Source of the DNA: a virus
Direction: 5' to 3' (one strand)
Virus record (IMG/VR): IMGVR_UViG_3300045988_072096
Length of the DNA: 64,000 nt
Shown: piece by piece, positions 1,985 to 24,803 of the stretch
Layout of the letters: each line of letters begins with the position of its first letter
How positions within the stretch are numbered: position 1 is the first letter of the stretch
Program-made: the position numbers and the translations under genes
The notes under the pieces: generated by a model
Database searches by the model: none
Told to the model about the DNA's origin: nothing
Seen by the model: only the letters and a program-made list of their open reading frames with translations

Positions 1985-2088
1985 ACACTAAACCTATGCA
2001 GATAGCGAGAGCATATTGCTTATCGCTACCTGCTTGGTTCCAGTTAAAACGAATGCTATGATTAATAAGCAAAAATAAATATTTAAAA

Positions 2089-2154
2089 ATTCCCTGATGA
2101 GTCTTTGAAAATTAAGACGAAACATTCTCACACGCATTACGAGAGTGTCGGGAT
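2089..2154 (+). ncRNA. Hammerhead ribozyme HH1 (type I, canonical stem II)
   Basis: Core CTGATGA (2094-2100). Stem II is GTCTT/AAGAC. GAAA at 2119-2122. Stem III is ACATTCTC/GAGAGTGT (8 bp, one GU). Cleavage triplet is GTC, with predicted cleavage after C2149. Stem I is ATTCC/GGGAT. Confidence 0.8.
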
Positions 2155-2499
2155 ATCAAATAAGACATCAAATGGTTTTGTAGGCCTTAGGACCCATTAG
2201 TAAAAGACCTTCAGCAACTGTGATACGCTAAACAAATTGGTCATCATGGCACAGCATGGCGAACTATCGCTTAAATAGTAAGTATTTAGAATTGGATGGG
2301 CTCCCTCGACCAATCCAAATATAATAGAGGGTGTATTACTGTGCAAAAATTGTTTGAACAAATTGTTGACATGGTACAAGGTTTGTGAAGAACAATGTAA
2401 TACAAAACATGACTATCCTCAACAGTAGACATGTATTATTAAACTCGAACAATCTATTATTTTTGCAATAGATTGGCGACGTGACCCACGCGTAAAGTG

Positions 2500-2608
2500 G
2501 CGTCATCCAGGAGACGTAAAAATTCACACTGATGAGACTGGACGAAACACAGAGAGAAACTATTAACTCAACTTACCAGTAGTTAATAATGGCTCTGTGT
2601 CTGTGAGT
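2500..2608 (+). ncRNA. Hammerhead ribozyme HH2 (type I, stem II reduced to G-C plus a pseudoknot to an upstream hairpin loop)
   Basis: CTGATGA at 2529-2535 and GAAA at 2544-2547. Stem III is ACACAGAG/CTCTGTGT (perfect 8 bp). Cleavage triplet GTC, cleavage after C2601. Stem I is ATTCACA/TGTGAGT. Loop-II CTGGA (2538-2542) is complementary to TCCAG (2506-2510) in the loop of hairpin CGTC/GACG. Confidence 0.75.
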
Positions 2609-2712
2609 AACAATCACGACAAACACGTTTGCTTCGATTCTTTATGCATTCTTTGTGAAGGAGTTCTTCGGTTTTCTTTAAGTAAAAGAAAATGGAAGTA
2701 ACTCTGACAGAC

Positions 2713-2786
2713 GGACTTATAGCTCAGTTGGTTAGAGCAGCAGACTCATAATCTGAAGGTCGTGGGTTCAATCCCCTCTAGGTCCA
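2713..2786 (+). tRNA. tRNA with CAU anticodon (elongator Met or Ile2-type)
   Basis: Cloverleaf: acceptor GGACTTA/TAGGTCC, D arm GCTC..GAGC, anticodon loop CTCATAA, T loop TTCAATC. There is one mismatch each in the anticodon and T stems. Confidence 0.85.
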
Positions 2787-3011
2787 CTATAAATAACAAC
2801 TAAAACCCTCGCGATAGTATAAGGTAAATCGCTTTATCGATTATGGCAACATTACATTTAGAATTTACTATAGAACTTACTATGGAAAAAGATTACTGCT
2901 TTCATAACAAAATATGGACAAAATTATAGCATAACTGAATTTGAAAATATGATGAACAGTTAATCCGATCCTGGAGAGCGTACATGGGACCTTTCTTAAA
3001 AATAATATTAT

Positions 3012-3227
3012 ATGAGATACATTTATATTTTAGCTTATAAAGATATAAACGGAGATACGACAATATGTAAATTAGATATTAACCTCAATCGAATTATTCG
3101 ATTAGGATGTAGAGAAGCAGATCGTCATCAAGAACGTCGCTATATAATATATAGACAACCGATAACAGATGATGGTGAGATTTCTCTTTACTGCAAAATA
3201 TCTCCATCTACAACACATATCAACTAA
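3012..3227 (+). CDS. Hypothetical small protein (71 aa)
   Basis: ATG ORF with a TAA stop. Confidence 0.45.
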   Translation: MRYIYILAYKDINGDTTICKLDINLNRIIRLGCREADRHQERRYIIYRQPITDDGEISLYCKISPSTTHIN

Positions 3228-3265
3228 AAAATAATACAATTATACAAAGAAGCAGGTTATCTAAA

Positions 3266-3478
3266 ATGAAACGGAAACATCAATTTCATCGCGAAAATTG
3301 TTCCAGCACAATTCGCGAAGCATTTAAGGACATATTCGATAGAACTATAGTCCTAGCTGGAAAACACGCCTTTGAATGGTCTATTATGGTATGTGACCAT
3401 GGCGTAGTTACACGAATAACCTTCTCATGCAGAGAAGATGCTCGTAGGGAGTACACAAGATTGAAAAAATTAAAATAA
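3266..3478 (+). CDS. Hypothetical small protein (70 aa)
   Basis: ATG ORF with a TAA stop. Confidence 0.5.
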   Translation: MKRKHQFHRENCSSTIREAFKDIFDRTIVLAGKHAFEWSIMVCDHGVVTRITFSCREDARREYTRLKKLK

Positions 3479-3562
3479 TTCTTATGTTCCTGCCGTATTG
3501 GCAATTTTATTGTAAAAATCCCATTAGATTACATTCGTTGTGAAACGCATGTAATCATTTAA

Positions 3563-3631
3563 ACTCAGCCGAGGAGAGTATAAAATTGTGACTGACGAGA
3601 CTCGGACGAAATATGCATAACATATCTCACA
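3563..3631 (+). ncRNA. Hammerhead ribozyme HH3 (same pseudoknot architecture as HH2)
   Basis: CTGACGA at 3592-3598 and GAAA at 3608-3611. Stem III is ATATG-CATAA-CATAT. Cleavage triplet ATC, cleavage after C3626. Stem I is TGTGA/TCACA. Loop-II CTCGG (3601-3605) is complementary to CCGAG (3569-3573) in the loop of hairpin ACTC/GAGT. Stem I, the upstream hairpin and the pseudoknot all covary with HH2. Confidence 0.75.
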
Positions 3632-3740
3632 TAATAATAAATGAATTATATTTAATTTTACTCATATTTACCATTTTAGTGCATAATTGATAAATTTTAG
3701 TTGTGCGCACACCTGGTATGTGAATATAGGGTGTGCATTT

Positions 3741-3811
3741 TGGAGTATGGTGTAATGGTAGCACTACAGATTTTGGTTCTGTCAGACCTGGTTCGAGTCC
3801 AGGTACTCCAA
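3741..3811 (+). tRNA. tRNA-Gln (UUG)
   Basis: Clean cloverleaf: acceptor TGGAGTA/TACTCCA (U1-A72, as in bacterial tRNA-Gln), D stem GTGT/GCAC, anticodon stem ACAGA/TCTGT, loop TTTTGGT, T arm CCTGG-TTCGAGT-CCAGG. Confidence 0.9.
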
Positions 3812-3935
3812 CGAAATATTGTAACAGTTTTGCATGTTTTTACGTGAATAATAGTAGCGTATCTTAAAAACATGCTGGAGAGAGATCGAAAGGTCTATTT
3901 TAGCATTAATTAAAGTCCCTGCTAAGGACAATTTT

Positions 3936-4175
3936 ATGTCAAACAATCTTAATTCATTTCAAGGCAAACATGTACAAGGATTCTGTTCAGCTTCAGAATT
4001 AACAGTAGTAATCGATGGCGAAAAACATCAGGTATCTATACAATTTGATAGATTATATCAGGTACACGACGTATGCCCTCGTAGCATAGAGCTACCAACG
4101 AGAACTATTCATCTATTTGATGACTTACACGGTCGTCCAAAAGATACACTTACAGAATACTTTATGCACATCTAA
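3936..4175 (+). CDS. Hypothetical protein (79 aa)
   Basis: ATG ORF with a TAA stop. Confidence 0.5.
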   Translation: MSNNLNSFQGKHVQGFCSASELTVVIDGEKHQVSIQFDRLYQVHDVCPRSIELPTRTIHLFDDLHGRPKDTLTEYFMHI

Positions 4176-4186
4176 TCCATATCAAA

Positions 4187-6524: not shown

Positions 6525-6546
6525 CAAATTAAAACATTTATCAAAA

Positions 6547-8122: not shown

Positions 8123-8169
8123 AAGCTCGATTCATAAATTGAATTCAGATCATAGAACCTTTGAGTCAC

Positions 8170-8307
8170 ATGATTAAGTGGAAGGGAAAGTTTACGCCTG
8201 AAGTCTGGCATTATGCAGCAGTTGCGGAACGCCACAGACATGAATTGACATGTCATACAGAGCCTAGAGCCAGTTATGAATTCAGATGCCGAACTTACGG
8301 TAGTTAA
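8170..8307 (+). CDS. Possible 45-aa ORF directly behind an AGAACCTTTGAGTCA box
   Basis: Hand translation gives MIKWKGKFTPEVWHYAAVAERHRHELTCHTEPRASYEFRCRTYGS with a TAA stop. Confidence 0.3.
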   Translation: MIKWKGKFTPEVWHYAAVAERHRHELTCHTEPRASYEFRCRTYGS

Positions 8308-8714
8308 ATATAAGTCACATGATCAAAAGAATTGAATCTTAGCGAGTCATTGGAGCCTCGACGAGGTTAGTGTAGGCTAACTACGTCGACTGAGATGTAA
8401 ATCAAAAATGTTGAAAGCGACATGCAAGAGTCTTAGAGCCAGTCATATCACCGCTTATATTGAGCCAAATAAAGCCGTTTTAAAGCGTTATTAATCAATT
8501 GTGAAGTAGCTAATCACATGAGACCAAATAGCGTCTTAAAACGGCTTAAAACAGGCTTAAATCAAATGTTCTATCTGATCAATAGAACATTTACAAAGAA
8601 TAATAGCATGTATGAGGTAATTTACGAAGACGAGGGTTCGACTCCCTCATGGTCCACGTCTACATATACATTCTCATAAAATATAATTGATCCATCGTAA
8701 AACGAAAATTATCG

Positions 8715-8747
8715 CCAATGTGGTTCGTGAGAATAGCATTGGTTTTT
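8715..8747 (+). terminator. Terminator-like hairpin with conserved 14-nt loop (copy 1)
   Basis: CCAATGT / GGTTCGTGAGAATA / GCATTGG followed by TTTTT. Confidence 0.55.
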
Positions 8748-8890
8748 AACAAGGGCCATACTGGATTTGATTCGTAAAGGAAGTAAATACGTTAAGTGCT
8801 ACTATATAAATTCAACTGGCAACTATAATGTTGTAGACTACACACATGTAGCATGAGTGTAATCTGAGTGTTTCCTACTAAAGTGGAGGA

Positions 8891-8938
8891 AGATGTAATA
8901 CGATAGGCGTACATTGTGGTTCGAGCCCACTACATCTA
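8891..8938 (+). ncRNA. tRNA-like element lacking an anticodon arm (acceptor, D-like hairpin and T arm)
   Basis: Acceptor AGATGTA/TACATCT (7 bp). D-like hairpin TACG-ATAGG-CGTA. T arm GTGG-TTCGAGC-CCAC. Only CAT occupies the place of the anticodon and variable region. Confidence 0.55.
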
Positions 8939-8982
8939 CGAAATTTATTTGTCTATTGTTTATGAAAAGTTATTAGAGTAGT

Positions 8983-9013
8983 AATGCACGGTTCGTGAGA
9001 ATAGTGCATTTTT
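8983..9013 (+). terminator. Terminator-like hairpin with conserved 14-nt loop (copy 2)
   Basis: AATGCAC / GGTTCGTGAGAATA / GTGCATT followed by TTTTT. The loop is identical to copy 1 and the stem covaries. Confidence 0.55.
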
Positions 9014-9022
9014 AATTTGATT

Positions 9023-12435: not shown

Positions 12436-12530
12436 TTCAGTCCACTAAAGAGAAAATCTCAGCTTTAGGAGGACGAGTGAAACAATGGTGGGACAATGTT
12501 AAACCATATTAGAGATTATCAAAATCGATT

Positions 12531-12965
12531 ATGCGAAAGTTAACAACAATCCTATGCAGCATTGCCTTTGCATTATCAGGTATTTGCCTGGCAAAGATAA
12601 CAACTGCTAATTCTTCAACATCATCTCAAGTTGTGGCAGCTACTATGCCCGATATTAACTTGAATGATATAAAGTTGCCTAAAGACCTTACATTAGATCT
12701 ACAGCAACAGGATAGTATCCGTTCACCCGGCAAACCGGATACTGTCTATTTAGAAAAGCCGGAAGTAAAAACCAAAAAATCTAAGAAGGTTCGCGCACCT
12801 CGAAGAGTAGCAACGAAGACAGTCCACGTCCCAGTTGTCTATCTAATAACGCGTATGGATAACAAGGAAGACTCCATTAGTCATGACAGCCTACCGATCT
12901 ACAAAGTAGAGAAAATAGGAAAGATTGATCTAAAAAAGTTCAATTCCTCCATAGATATTAATTAG
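12531..12965 (+). CDS. Secreted or signal-peptide protein (144 aa); stops at TAG
   Basis: N-terminus MRKLTTILCSIAFALSGICLA. TAG stop at 12963-12965. Confidence 0.65.
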   Translation: MRKLTTILCSIAFALSGICLAKITTANSSTSSQVVAATMPDINLNDIKLPKDLTLDLQQQDSIRSPGKPDTVYLEKPEVKTKKSKKVRAPRRVATKTVHVPVVYLITRMDNKEDSISHDSLPIYKVEKIGKIDLKKFNSSIDIN

Positions 12966-15122
12966 TATTTTAGTTTTGGATTGTGCAGCTGTGCGCTACA
13001 TGATCCAAAACCTATGGGTAAGTACTTATAGTAGGTCTCATTAGCCTATGTACGAAATTTATACTTGATCCGAGAATATGTTAGCCGTCTCAAACGGTGA
13101 GATCACTCAAAAGGTAGGATGAAATGCATTGTATACTGAAAATATATAATGTAAGTAGGATTAGCGCTGTATCAGATCCTAGAAACCATATAACTGGACT
13201 TGTGAGAACCGTTTGGAGACAAGCTGGATGAAGAAGTATGGTTTTGAAACGCATAAGTCTCAAAAAGAGCATAATGAACCGTATCGGAATTATATTCAAT
13301 GATACTAAGAATATACGAACGAGACACGAGATGAACATATCTATCAATACTGAAAATTTATATTGTGGGAAATTACATACATGGTATGGTGTAATTTGCA
13401 ATGATATCAATATAAAACGAGAGTAAGTGACCAAAAATAGGTATGAGTATCACTAAAAATAGCTGTAGCATAGTGTTCCTTGGTTCCAACCCAAGTATGA
13501 AGGTGTGAAGAAAATACACAGATTGTTCTATATCATAAGGATAATACTTATGAAGTGTATCGTAAATATGCTGTCTATGTAAGTCCCTGCTGTTAGATTC
13601 AGCACATCTCCGTTGAAGGGGAGCCAGTGATGGGGTAAAACGACTGATACAAGATGAAGTGTGACCGACAGGCTTTTGTAGTTTATCGGTATATAAAAGA
13701 GAAACTACCAGGAGGGTAGGGCAGACCCTTAGTTAGGTTATGATAACCGTACATCGTAATCTATGCGCGATACGAGGCCGCGAACAAAGTCTGATATGAA
13801 TACACTAAGTTCAGTAAGCAGAATGATGTGTATTGGACATAGTATAAAAAACTATGCCAATTCCGGTGATTACGTTATAATCAAAAAACTCTTGATCAGA
13901 GAACAGATCACTTACGTAAGTCGATTCGACACTGTACACGCCAGTACTGCATGAGATCGCTTTCGTTTCAAGACAGATGATAGTTAGAAGGTTCAACTAT
14001 GTATACATATATTACAGTCCCTATGGGATAGAATCCGTTATACTGTAACTGCGTATACATTTTGAAATAAGATACTTCTTACAAAGATAAGTCAGCGATA
14101 AAATTAAGAATTAACATGTTTAACAAAAATTAGGTGTCCCCAGATAGCGAAAAACCTACGTTGTAAGTAGGGAGTAGTGAAGTCTGAAACCTGAGTACCA
14201 ACCGTTATATGTAACCAGAACTAAAGTATGGACAGCAAATCCATGCGTAAACTCTAAAGGTAGGCATAATACATGGAAATGATGGGCAGCTTTAAGGAGC
14301 TATGAGACGCAGTGCAATAGCGTATGCAGGTGATGTATCGAAAACATCTCTTACTATCCACTGTCTCTGGATGTGTAAGAAACTCTTAAAGTGGGTGACA
14401 AGTGAAAATGTATGAGTTGAAATCTCAATATTCGTGTACTATAAATAAATGAGGTAGAAACACCAAGAACAGAAAGTCCGTAGGATCGCAGATGCCCCCT
14501 GAAGGCATAGATCGTTCGATAATGAAACGTACTCCTTGCGTAAACAGCTACACACGCACGTAGCAAACAGGAAAACCGTCAACAGGACATCCTCCATGAC
14601 GTTAAACCGAAGGATGCTCAAACAGAATGTTTTTGTAGTTAAAATAGGGAAACTGTCAAAGATATTCAAGACATTGTGGGTTAAGATACATATTGCGCAT
14701 TAGTCCAATTGGAAATTTTGCCGATTGTCTAACAATCAGTATCAAGAAACGTACGGAAGATCTTCGTACAATATTTATCTATAAATAAATATGGCATCGT
14801 ACATAAACGTAGATGTCTAAAACAAGATTGATTTCTTCATAGCAGCATTCAAAGCTTTACCGAAATACAGACGATGGGCTTAGCCAATCATACCGTTTGA
14901 TTCCCGTTGTGCAATTGAGCTTCATTTTAAGGAATATAAAACACAACTATATCTGTATAAAGCGTGGTTCCCATTAGCACACCAACTGTATGCAAGCAAT
15001 ATATTTAACATAAATACACCTAAGTGACTCTCCGAAGCAGTGTATTTTCTTTTTTTAATTAACATTATTAACAAAAAATATCGTTGGTTTAATCAAAAAC
15101 GATATCAAAAAGGATATTTTTT
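12966..15122 (+). other. 2.16-kb ORF-free, hairpin-dense region: candidate large structured RNA(s)
   Basis: Stops of all three kinds occur in every frame I checked. Only short low-complexity track ORFs are present. Many 5-9 bp hairpins and long-range complements occur. The strand is assumed from the flanking genes. Confidence 0.6.
14406..14898 (+). ncRNA. RNase P RNA-like candidate (hypothesis)
   Basis: GAAAGTCCG (14472-14480) resembles CR-I. ACAGA-CGAT-GGGCTTA (14867-14882) resembles CR-V. These two can form a P4-like helix, AAGTCCGT/ATGGGCTT. A 13-bp P1-like helix pairs 14406-14419 with 14885-14898. GTAAAC..AGCAA lies at 14540-14565. Confidence 0.3.
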
Positions 15123-15731
15123 ATGGCAACAACAACAATTAACGTAAACGTACAAAACGCCCTGTCGGGCAACCGTAACCCTATCTCATTGATGGGTGCT
15201 AACCTTGGTAAACAATTCTTCACAACAGAGGTCCGCGACTGTTGGCCCAACTTTGAGAAGGAAAAGAACACCATCCAAATGAACGATCAGAAGACGCTGA
15301 TCACTAATCGTTCACCTCGTCGCTATCGTATTAACGCTAAAGATATCTATGGTATCATAATCGATACCGATATCAACAACAATCCGGTGATCAAGATTAA
15401 TCCTCATAAGGACGGTCTTGCTGATGCCACCATCGCAATCTCTTCAGATATGAAGGATTACGGTGTAGTAACCGAAGAAGCTGTCAAGGAGGCATTGAAG
15501 AATGCTAACGATCCTAACTTGACAGTAACACACGCATTCAAGGATCCTCAGAAGCTGATCCAGTTTATAAATATGCTTAATCAGAGTGAGTACGAAAGTA
15601 TTCAGACTCTGATCGATGCTCTCTGCAAAATGCAGCAGAGTATCAAGTCAGCTATGGCTGATAACACAAAGAAAGTAAACGACTATATGGAACAACTCAA
15701 TAGTCGTGTGGACATCAACATTCATGACTAA
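15123..15731 (+). CDS. Hypothetical protein (202 aa)
   Basis: Clean GC-richer ORF with a TAA stop. Confidence 0.75.
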   Translation: MATTTINVNVQNALSGNRNPISLMGANLGKQFFTTEVRDCWPNFEKEKNTIQMNDQKTLITNRSPRRYRINAKDIYGIIIDTDINNNPVIKINPHKDGLADATIAISSDMKDYGVVTEEAVKEALKNANDPNLTVTHAFKDPQKLIQFINMLNQSEYESIQTLIDALCKMQQSIKSAMADNTKKVNDYMEQLNSRVDINIHD

Positions 15732-24258: not shown

Positions 24259-24289
24259 TAGGTCTGGTGGAGACCGGTTAACTCCGGGG

Positions 24290-24331
24290 TATCGGAATGG
24301 TTTTAGAGAGGTTCGATTCCTCTCCCGATAA
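24290..24331 (+). ncRNA. tRNA-like minihelix (acceptor stem, 10-nt GG-containing linker, T arm)
   Basis: Acceptor TATCGG(A)/(C)CCGATA (6 bp). Linker ATGGTTTTAG. T arm AGAGG-TTCGATT-CCTCT. Confidence 0.5.
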
Positions 24332-24534
24332 CATTGTCTAACCCGAAAATGCTTTCAGCGGAAAGTTATAAATGTCGTCCTTAAGGCGGACGTGAGGTTG
24401 AGAAACCCTCTATGTTAGATTTATTAAAAGTTTTCTTTTAGACAATTGAGTCGGCATATAAAACGTGCATTATCCGACAGTACGGCCTGCAAAGGTAGCA
24501 ACAAGCAGCTATGCTTGGTACAAAAATAGCATCT

Positions 24535-24620
24535 GGCTTAATGGTGAAATTGGTATACACACAACACTTAAAATGTTGCGTTCCGAAAGGAACTTGGGGG
24601 TTCGAGTCCCCTTTGAGCCA
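24535..24620 (+). tRNA. tRNA-Leu (UAA), class II
   Basis: Acceptor GGCTTAA/TTGAGCC. Anticodon stem CAACA/TGTTG with loop CTTAAAA. Long variable arm GTTCC-GAAA-GGAAC. T arm GGGGG-TTCGAGT-CCCCT. Confidence 0.9.
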
Positions 24621-24639
24621 CTAAGTGATATCGCTTAAC

Positions 24640-24705
24640 AGAATATACATATAGTTCAGGCAAATAAAAGACTGCGGCCTAAAGTGGTCTCTATATGTAT
24701 ATTCT
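24640..24705 (+). repeat. Perfect 15-bp inverted repeat (long hairpin)
   Basis: AGAATATACATATAG (24640-24654) pairs with CTATATGTATATTCT (24691-24705) around a 36-nt loop. It lies between tRNA-Leu and the next tRNA-like element. Confidence 0.8.
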
Positions 24706-24707
24706 AC

Positions 24708-24777
24708 CGCCGTAATAGCATTTAGGAATTAATACACTCTTACGAGAGATATTTAGGTTCGACTCCTAATACGGCAC
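24708..24777 (+). ncRNA. tRNA-like element whose anticodon arm is replaced by a 4-bp stem capped with a UACG tetraloop
   Basis: Acceptor (C)GCCGTA/TACGGC(A). GG at positions 18-19. CTCT-TACG-AGAG in place of the anticodon arm. T arm TTAGG-TTCGACT-CCTAA. Confidence 0.5.
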
Positions 24778-24803
24778 AAATACTAACTAAGAACTTATAA
24801 GTC

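Follow-up and report, generated by a model that had tools for sequence, protein, structure and literature searches.

To our knowledge, large structured RNAs other than ribosomal RNA (rRNA) are very rare. Each class so far (OLE, GOLLD, and ROOL) has opened a line of research, and GOLLD is carried by phages and prophages, often beside tRNA genes. GOLLD is a very large structured RNA with covarying helices, pseudoknots, and no known biochemical function, which assembles into RNA-only multimers (PMC12286853); ROOL (Rumen-Originating, Ornate, Large), which metagenomes of the gut and rumen revealed, frequently in a phage context, is likewise of unknown function (PMC5737381, PMC12286853); OLE (Ornate Large Extremophilic) is a large, highly conserved RNA that forms a ribonucleoprotein scaffold with partner proteins (PMC3413148). 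Here, we analyzed a 64,000-nucleotide (nt) stretch of viral DNA (hereafter the window; IMG/VR record IMGVR_UViG_3300045988_072096), in which an interval free of open reading frames (ORFs), at 12966-15122, had been proposed from the letters alone to hold one or more large structured RNAs. Our comparative analysis suggests that this interval is indeed probably a functional structured RNA locus, encoded on the + strand at about 13016-15056, and that this locus is common to the Oafivirinae and, in diverged form, to the Loutivirinae, both Suoliviridae crAss-like phages. Two properties expected of a structured noncoding RNA carry this proposal, namely conservation without a coding signal and abundant compensatory base-pair changes exceeding those of the controls.

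Set against the described systems, the candidate locus belongs to no described family and represents a new class of a known kind, that of large structured RNAs borne by phages. Like GOLLD, it is large and phage-borne, with many covarying helices and a pseudoknot; unlike GOLLD, it spans ~2050 nt (vs. ~800 nt), belongs to crAss-like phages that infect Bacteroidota, and lies away from tRNA genes, the nearest of which are at 3741-3812 and 24535-24621, and GOLLD membership was rejected on size, on tRNA context, and for want of a model match. With ROOL it shares the profile of a large ornate RNA candidate from a gut source and a phage context, whereas ROOL (~580 nt) has a supported single compact fold and the structure supported here is local and mid-range only. 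OLE is comparable in being large, highly conserved, and structured, but it is cellular, measures ~610 nt, and has defined partner genes adjacent to it, when the present element is phage-borne and its neighbors have no recognizable family; OLE membership was discarded because Rfam gave no match and neither Pfam nor PHROGs has a family for the flanking proteins. The original prediction had pointed to the GOLLD and ROOL type and to phages with tRNA clusters, and as a statement of membership this pointer did not hold, since no Rfam model matches the interval (E<=10) or recurs across 10 divergent homologs, and since the element does not adjoin the tRNA genes of this genome. More precisely, Rfam returned no match for the element at gathering score, for positions 12500-15600 at E<=10, or for the 10 divergent homologs at E<=5, the large-RNA models gave none in the interval, and the GOLLD, ROOL, and OLE models gave none in the element, which is 2.5 to 3.5 times longer than GOLLD or ROOL; at gathering score, the GOLLD model gave none anywhere in the window. 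As an analogy only, its organization recalls that of rRNA, with which it shares a kilobase size, invariant single-stranded blocks alternating with covarying stems, and insertions at helix tips; it differs from rRNA in that it matches no rRNA model, has no supported long-range helices, and displays no sign of a link to translation. Full-text searches of freely accessible papers yielded no description of the element.

From the perspective of its distribution, BLAST against phage records identified the window as a crAss-like phage of the Suoliviridae/Oafivirinae, the interval being 96% identical over its full length to that of the uncultured phage cr131_1 (Crassvirales, Suoliviridae, Oafivirinae, Cacepaovirus), with weaker matches in other Oafivirinae genera. 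In cr131_1, cr130_1, cr7_1, cr272_1, a Bohxovirus, and Dulem virus 42, the same two small ORFs flank the gap as they do in the window, and a gap of 2.0-2.27 kb is syntenic in every relative recovered. Homologs were gathered by pattern scans of IMG/VR, metagenomes, and genomes (the 14-nt pattern of the first collection scan being too unspecific), followed by an nhmmer profile search, and the profile of the conserved core, that is, of the proposed RNA gene or genes (13016-15056, + strand), aligns end to end in at least 143 full-length copies, at least 58 of them below 95% identity and at least 38 below 80%. The 64 full-length IMG/VR copies measure 2004-2271 nt. True matches are crAss-like contigs, many of them 95-105 kb long; matches in “bacterial” genome bins are either short fragments or contigs of 101 kb that share a bin with Segatella copri, and the remaining genome matches are chance hits devoid of a profile match. 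Among the Loutivirinae, the sister subfamily, cr4_1, cr53_1, and cr56_1 display a 2.1-kb gap at the syntenic position with collinear profile matches, and GAGAACCGU, GCCAACCG, and a CUGUCUC-looped hairpin are kept in these three genomes; across the two subfamilies, the order of the blocks is collinear and the total length is held at 2.0-2.27 kb. Far from being poorly conserved between close relatives, the interval is very well conserved, and the element is under stronger nucleotide-level constraint than the neighboring protein genes: its identity is 74-76% to cr130_1 and ~59% to cr272_1, when that of the adjacent 455-aa protein is 39.6% and 30%, respectively.

The gene desert described in the original prediction is real, as + strand ORFs end at 12965 and begin at 15123, and ORF lists and stop counts between these two positions yield no plausible ORF on either strand, the longest open frame being 119 codons under the standard code. 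It had also been asserted that TAG recoding opens no ORF there, and this too was confirmed (longest frame of 135 codons; all three stop types in all six frames), a check that is pertinent because TAG is read through in the late genes that the phage has on the minus strand; with TGA read through, the longest frame measures 123 codons, and with TAG and TGA read through together, 215 codons, and no long frame opens after reassigning TAG, TGA, TAA, or TAG and TGA. Among 28 homologs, the longest ORFs lie at different positions, in different frames, and on different strands, whichever code is tried, and a protein-coding test that included recoded frames detected neither a conserved open frame nor a 3-nt periodicity of substitutions. 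Indeed, column entropy in the interval has no 3-nt phase (spread of 0.02-0.16 bits in every 300-nt window vs. 0.62 in the downstream gene of the same genomes), with a mean of 0.87-1.21 bits vs. 1.24 in that gene, and no hidden or intron-split gene was found. The interval is not GC-richer than its surroundings, as had been thought: its GC content is 36.6%, vs. 35.0% for the window, 40.1% for the upstream flank, and 36.9% for the downstream flank. In public records, the homologous gap is filled with minus-strand ORFs (cr7_1, Bohxovirus) or with a string of tiny ORFs (Dulem virus 42). The ORFs annotated there, among which those at 3269-3751 in L003, 3287-3793 in L005, and 3032-5040 in L006, are not conserved and lack codon periodicity; they are probably spurious, long minus-strand frames being expected because the + strand is purine-rich.

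The alignment of related phages revealed strong base-pair covariation, and substitutions preserve ~25 helices, together with a pseudoknot and a closed multi-helix domain of 265 nt. With 45 sequences, the RNAalifold consensus energy reaches -356 kcal/mol on the + strand and -318 kcal/mol on the - strand, vs. -62 to -78 kcal/mol for column-shuffled alignments; per kb, it amounts to -165, about three times the -52 of the coding control from the same genomes, for which the downstream 202-aa gene was used. Defining a strong helix as one with at least three compensatory pairs and at least 90% canonical cells, we counted 20 in the interval vs. 2 in the coding control. In segment 13525-13800 (A3), 44 pairs including the pseudoknot, which is of the H type, are 91.8% paired vs. 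37-44% when partners are slid, with 203 double-change cells vs. 22-44; the observed values were reached by 0 of 500 shuffles for four of five measures and by 34 of 500 for the fifth, further standard pair types. Likewise, the 38 pairs of segment 14125-14445 (A4) are 90.8% paired vs. 33-47% when slid, with 186 double-change cells vs. 29-53 and 0 of 500 shuffles attaining the observed values, and the third segment, 13015-13335, shows the same pairing pattern. A strict alignment-wide test, whose null consists of parallel-strand runs, retained 9-10 local helices with at least three well-supported compensatory pairs vs. 0-1 in the null. Independently of the alignment, the duplex energy of cognate vs. 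non-cognate segments gave P values of 1e-7 to 4e-10 for four helices. The variable stems alternate with invariant single-stranded blocks and fixed 7-nt loops, and particular lineages have hairpins inserted at fixed points, a trait of other large RNAs too.

As for the strand, cells with G-U and A-C, which base composition expects at 1:1, are found at 677:129 in the + strand prediction, 286:192 in the - strand prediction, and 330:193 in the pairs predicted on both strands. The helix closing the 265-nt domain changes only from C to U opposite G, a wobble that exists only on the + strand, and the GC and AT skews over the interval agree with the + strand gene block in which it lies. Because of the G-U/A-C asymmetry, the wobble in the closing helix, and the matching skews, the + strand is the likely transcript.

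Several observations nonetheless weigh against the proposal of a functional RNA. Single-sequence folding barely beats dinucleotide shuffles: the minimum free energy (MFE) z-scores of the four quarters are -2.1, -1.2, -0.8, and -2.3, that of 14111-15060 is -0.78, and neighboring coding sequence, at -2.5 and -6.6, folds more strongly than the interval. The hairpins with which the interval was said to be crowded are thus not in excess of chance, and the support for structure is comparative, not thermodynamic. The expression, strand, ends, and abundance of the RNA are what we infer from sequence; scans found neither an excess of sigma-70-type promoters nor a canonical terminator; and the neighboring proteins are uninformative on function according to Pfam, PHROGs, a PDB sequence search, and an AlphaFold model (predicted local distance difference test score of 75) compared with Foldseek, an RNB match of the 202-aa protein being below threshold. 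Moreover, the alignments are sequence-based and not structure-based, the list of helices is not complete, some of the weaker ones on it may be erroneous, and no helix spanning more than ~330 nt was supported by any test applied.

This last point bears on the form that the RNA may take, as a compact 2-kb fold is unproven because no helix beyond ~330 nt is supported. That the whole 2.05 kb would be one RNA molecule with a defined three-dimensional architecture is a tentative idea that we regard as rather doubtful, and the structure data fit a chain of locally folded domains. It is also possible, though we do not favor it, that the locus encodes a tandem set of smaller structured RNAs, of ~100-350 nt each, released from one precursor or produced from internal promoters. 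Consistent with such a set, all supported helices are local, the largest supported closure being 265-330 nt, and a 19-nt motif found just before the closed domain, at 14111, recurs at 15059 and could mark an internal start. Every candidate for kilobase-range pairing also failed the cognate vs. non-cognate test: the kilobase-range helices suggested by RNAalifold, by the inverted repeats I2, I4, and I5, and by loop-to-strand contacts do not co-evolve and behave like negative controls, and a 9-bp helix between 13075-83 and 14112-20 is, on inspection, broken in cr130_1 and cr272_1. However, absent long-range covariation is weak evidence for separate molecules, since contacts between invariant blocks lie beyond covariation testing, and a tandem set does not readily account for a length held at 2.0-2.27 kb with collinear blocks in two subfamilies. 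Neither a conserved internal terminator nor a repeated unit was found, and an internal duplication, hinted at by short direct repeats, was not retrieved by comparing a profile of one half with the other half.

Alternatively, the interval could be a very long structured leader or cis-regulatory region of the flanking mRNAs, acting on the downstream 202-aa gene (its stability, processing, or translation) without any function in trans. The orientation of the element is that of its neighbors, no clear promoter or terminator was found, a conserved hairpin stops 2 nt before the downstream start codon, and the downstream mRNA folds unusually well (z=-6.55). We nevertheless consider this unlikely, as the invariant blocks, the pseudoknot, and the closed domain, distributed over 2 kb, exceed any known bacterial leader, as the element is more conserved than the gene that it would regulate, and as a hairpin followed by a U tract sets it apart from the last 65 nt of the interval. 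A function at the DNA level, be it a replication origin (the alternative put forward in the original prediction), a packaging site, or single-stranded DNA hairpin promoters for a virion RNA polymerase as in N4-like phages, appears very unlikely. It is true that the element sits in the block of replication genes, ~4 kb upstream of the DNA polymerase gene, that crAss-like phages encode a giant RNA polymerase, and that compensatory hairpins could in principle extrude from DNA. But N4-type promoter hairpins are few and short, with 3-nt loops, and precede early genes, and the element has no iterons or tandem repeats and is not AT-rich relative to the genome. The sole skew turning point in the window lies at ~28 kb, where gene orientation flips, and the pseudoknot and nested 265-nt domain are an RNA-type architecture; a duplex-DNA site is unlikely because covariation with a strand-specific G-U bias is not expected of one. 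Finally, a hidden protein gene, whether recoded, frameshifted, intron-split, or made of small ORFs, is hardly credible in spite of the minus-strand ORFs of 160-198 codons that some homologs carry and that others annotated, and of the recoding of TAG by the phage, since no ORF is conserved in position, frame, or strand, no 300-nt window has codon periodicity, long frames stay closed under every reassignment, models of group I and II introns give no match, and the purine-rich + strand leads one to expect long minus-strand frames.

If the locus is a structured RNA, as we propose, this RNA would be transcribed together with the surrounding + strand early/replication genes, between a sigma-factor gene located ~2.4 kb upstream and a DNA polymerase gene located ~4 kb downstream; its transcript would end at the hairpin and U tract near 15056, and its product would act as RNA. 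By analogy with what has been proposed for other giant phage-associated RNAs, our working hypothesis is that of a long multi-domain scaffold RNA that could bind phage or host proteins or self-assemble, the invariant blocks and T-loop-like loops serving as potential contact surfaces. The candidate is two to three times larger than OLE, GOLLD, and ROOL, and if it were one 2.05-kb molecule, it would exceed in size every structured non-ribosomal RNA known so far from bacteria and their viruses, and might, in the course of infection by a phage family that is among the most abundant of the mammalian gut, act as a scaffold assembling with itself, as the core of a ribonucleoprotein, or as a catalyst. 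Because humans, other primates, pigs, and ruminants commonly have the carrier phages in their guts, the gut virome would also contain this RNA in abundance. With a model of the element, the probably spurious ORF annotations of cr7_1, the Bohxovirus, and Dulem virus 42 would be corrected and a marker for this phage clade obtained, and the locus offers a concrete target for RNA-seq, chemical probing, and cryo-EM.

Regarding the individual features, all on the + strand, the first is a long hairpin right after the upstream stop codon (12973-13011; inverted repeat I3), with a conserved apical AGCUNUGCGCU and without a U tract after it. The hairpin arms quoted in the original prediction do exist, within 1-3 nt of where they had been placed, and this hairpin, the first of those quoted, is kept with fully different stem sequences in at least seven lineages; it is missing in some others and may be a 5′ accessory or processing stem. 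Within the core comes first a 5′ hairpin (13022-13053) whose 7-nt loop, CUCAUUA, is nearly invariant, being fixed in 20 lineages when the stem varies, with four and six compensatory pairs in helices 13022-25/13050-53 and 13031-36/13044-49. It is followed by a small multi-helix unit (13065-13123) closed by UUGAUCC/GGAUGAA and including hairpin 13085-88/13094-97. This unit corresponds to a run of strict covariation (pair counts of AU:21 GC:6; UA:24 CG:3; and CG:23 plus three other types), is supported by the cognate vs. non-cognate duplex test (P=9e-8), and is the part still detected by BLAST in the Loutivirinae. Next come a 10-bp hairpin of variable sequence (13125-13153), where 10 of 10 pairs have compensatory changes and 89% of cells are canonical, and a helix (13199-13223; five compensatory pairs, 96% canonical cells) around the invariant block GAGAACCGUYUGG, which is kept in the Loutivirinae. 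As a side observation in this 5′ domain, one lineage carries an insertion of ~100 nt (L162, ~2920-3030; alignment A6, columns 41-150), and two other lineages have in common a 35-nt hairpin insertion at the same point; these insertions behave like expansion segments.

In the middle of the element, four consecutive hairpins occupy 13533-13622 (A3 helices 1-5, from pair counts), the third of which (13588-13604) has, on inspection only, a T-loop-like loop of consensus GUUCGAUUC. After an invariant block, GACCGCCAGGCUUU, two more hairpins are found at 13678-13730 (13678-87/13699-708 and 13712-16/13726-30), corresponding to A3 helices 6 and 7, which are 95.8% and 97.7% paired (duplex test P=3e-8). 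The H-type pseudoknot extends over 13766-13792: its stem S1 (CGCG, 13766-69/13779-82) is invariant, hence beyond covariation testing, and its stem S2 (AGGC 13775-78/GUCU 13789-92) covaries (AU:12 UA:7 GU:6 CG:2; CG:21 GC:3 UA:3), both helices (A3 8 and 9) being 100% paired. An extended hairpin follows at 13999-14058, with four and eight compensatory pairs in 13999-14004/14053-58 and 14011-18/14042-49. The closed multi-helix domain, supported by the A4 test, covers the 265 nt of 14135-14400, where UGUC.CC (14135-41) pairs with GG.GACA (14394-14400) around five nested helices (14142-44/14183-85, 14155-59/14167-71, 14226-33/14239-46, 14289-94/14387-92, and 14355-60/14368-73), and it receives hairpin insertions of ~60 nt in some lineages. 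The last of these helices belongs to the hairpin 14355-14373, in which six of six pairs covary below the invariant 7-nt loop CUGUCUC, a loop borne by different stems in the three Loutivirinae genomes. Just downstream, the hairpin UGAG-UUGAAAU-CUCA (14413-14427; A4 helix 8) is 77.8% paired, its inner pairs covarying (GC:17 AU:6) and its outer ones being weaker.

The 3′ part is more heterogeneous. At 14479-14518, a hairpin of 7 bp with three compensatory pairs and 94% canonical cells has a variable inner tip; it includes the ATGCC/GGCAT arms (14492-14508) quoted in the original prediction, which are present, though within a variable hairpin just upstream of the least conserved stretch. That stretch, 14560-14830, has the highest column entropy (1.19-1.21 bits) and a consensus consisting mostly of “n,” and its hairpins are kept only among close relatives; four of the six quoted hairpins (14588-14815) fall there, so that their arms are present but sit in the least conserved part of the element. 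Two hairpins at 14884-14947 (14884-88/14895-99, with loop UACCGUU, and 14906-11/14942-47) have five and six compensatory pairs. The core ends with a hairpin seen on inspection (15016-15056), ACAC 15016-19 pairing with GUGU 15040-43 ahead of a U-rich tract at 15045-56; its stem becomes GCAC/GUGC, ACAUC/GAUGU, ACAUU/AAUGU, and AGUAAC/GUUGCU in four other genera, and the U-rich tail is present in most. This is the probable 3′ end, judged from the sequence pattern, even if a consensus terminator scan does not call it. Lastly, the conserved hairpin 2 nt before the next start codon (15075-15120; repeats I8 and D13), with 10 bp, eight compensatory pairs, and 96% canonical cells, is probably the leader of the next gene and not part of the RNA.

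Two short motifs recur in this region. The 19-nt TTAACATNNTTAACAAAAA occurs exactly only at 14111-14129, before the closed domain, and at 15059-15077, after the proposed 3′ end, and three-mismatch copies are found at 6529, 7653, and 17249, just upstream of three + strand start codons; with 8 matches vs. 1.8 expected, the motif may belong to phage promoters or leaders, could mark an internal start, or could merely reflect A-rich leaders. The element has six GTAAGT sites on its + strand (13018, 13151, 13423, 13579, 13916, and 14163; 1.15 expected, P=0.002), which are only moderately conserved, being identical in 10-18 of 58 sequences, and GTAAGT may be a recurring structural motif. Other identities were considered and rejected: introns of group I or of group II have no model match, and both flanking ORFs are intact in every genome compared, each with a stop and a start of its own; an RNA partner of a reverse transcriptase (RT), of the UG27/DRT type (a lead from PMC9226505), is not suggested by the 455-aa neighbor, which has no RT domain; the tRNA-like modules evoked by 5-bp stems and 7-nt loops are called in the interval neither by ARAGORN nor by the Rfam tRNA model; and the complementarity of ACACGAGCUGA to 16S rRNA is at chance level by our own estimate.

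With regard to the rest of the genome, the + strand genes at 1-28 kb use the standard code, and the minus-strand late genes at 28-64 kb are open only with TAG read through, which yields frames of 2398 and 5874 codons. The tRNAs recovered in the 64-kb window are Met, Gln-TTG, and Leu-TAA only, none of them with a CTA anticodon; a TAG suppressor may lie outside the window or be noncanonical. The upstream flanking ORF (12531-12965, + strand) encodes 144 aa of no known family, with an N-terminus resembling, by eye, a lipoprotein signal peptide. It stops at a TAG whose readthrough extends the frame to 13097, into a conserved hairpin, and its homolog in cr131_1 is annotated 135 nt longer. The downstream ORF (15123-15731, + strand) encodes the 202 aa of the coding control, also of no family, and the folding z-score of its mRNA against dinucleotide shuffles (-6.55) is far beyond that of the noncoding element itself. 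Intergenic gaps elsewhere in the window had been put at 0-300 nt, to which the gaps at 1985-4186, 8123-9016, and 24259-24803 are counterexamples. The first, again poor in ORFs, extends over 2.2 kb and holds two tRNAs together with two RAGATH-1 hammerhead ribozymes (2500-2606 and 3562-3631), each located ~110 nt upstream of a tRNA (Met-CAT, 2713-2787, and Gln-TTG, 3741-3812), an order reminiscent of the pairs of ribozyme and tRNA that have been described for gut phages with recoding (PMC10879173). The gap at 8123-9016 contains a tmRNA-like gene, called by ARAGORN at 8567-8947 with the tag peptide GNYNVVDYTHVA and annotated likewise in cr131_1, which the Rfam scan did not report at gathering score, and the gap at 24259-24803 contains a tRNA. 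As for the hosts, the element is found on the 101-kb contigs L211 and L224, binned as Segatella copri metagenome-assembled genomes; most likely, these contigs are crAss-like phage genomes, complete and placed by mistake in the bin of their host, so that a Segatella/Prevotella host is hinted at for the phages carrying the element.

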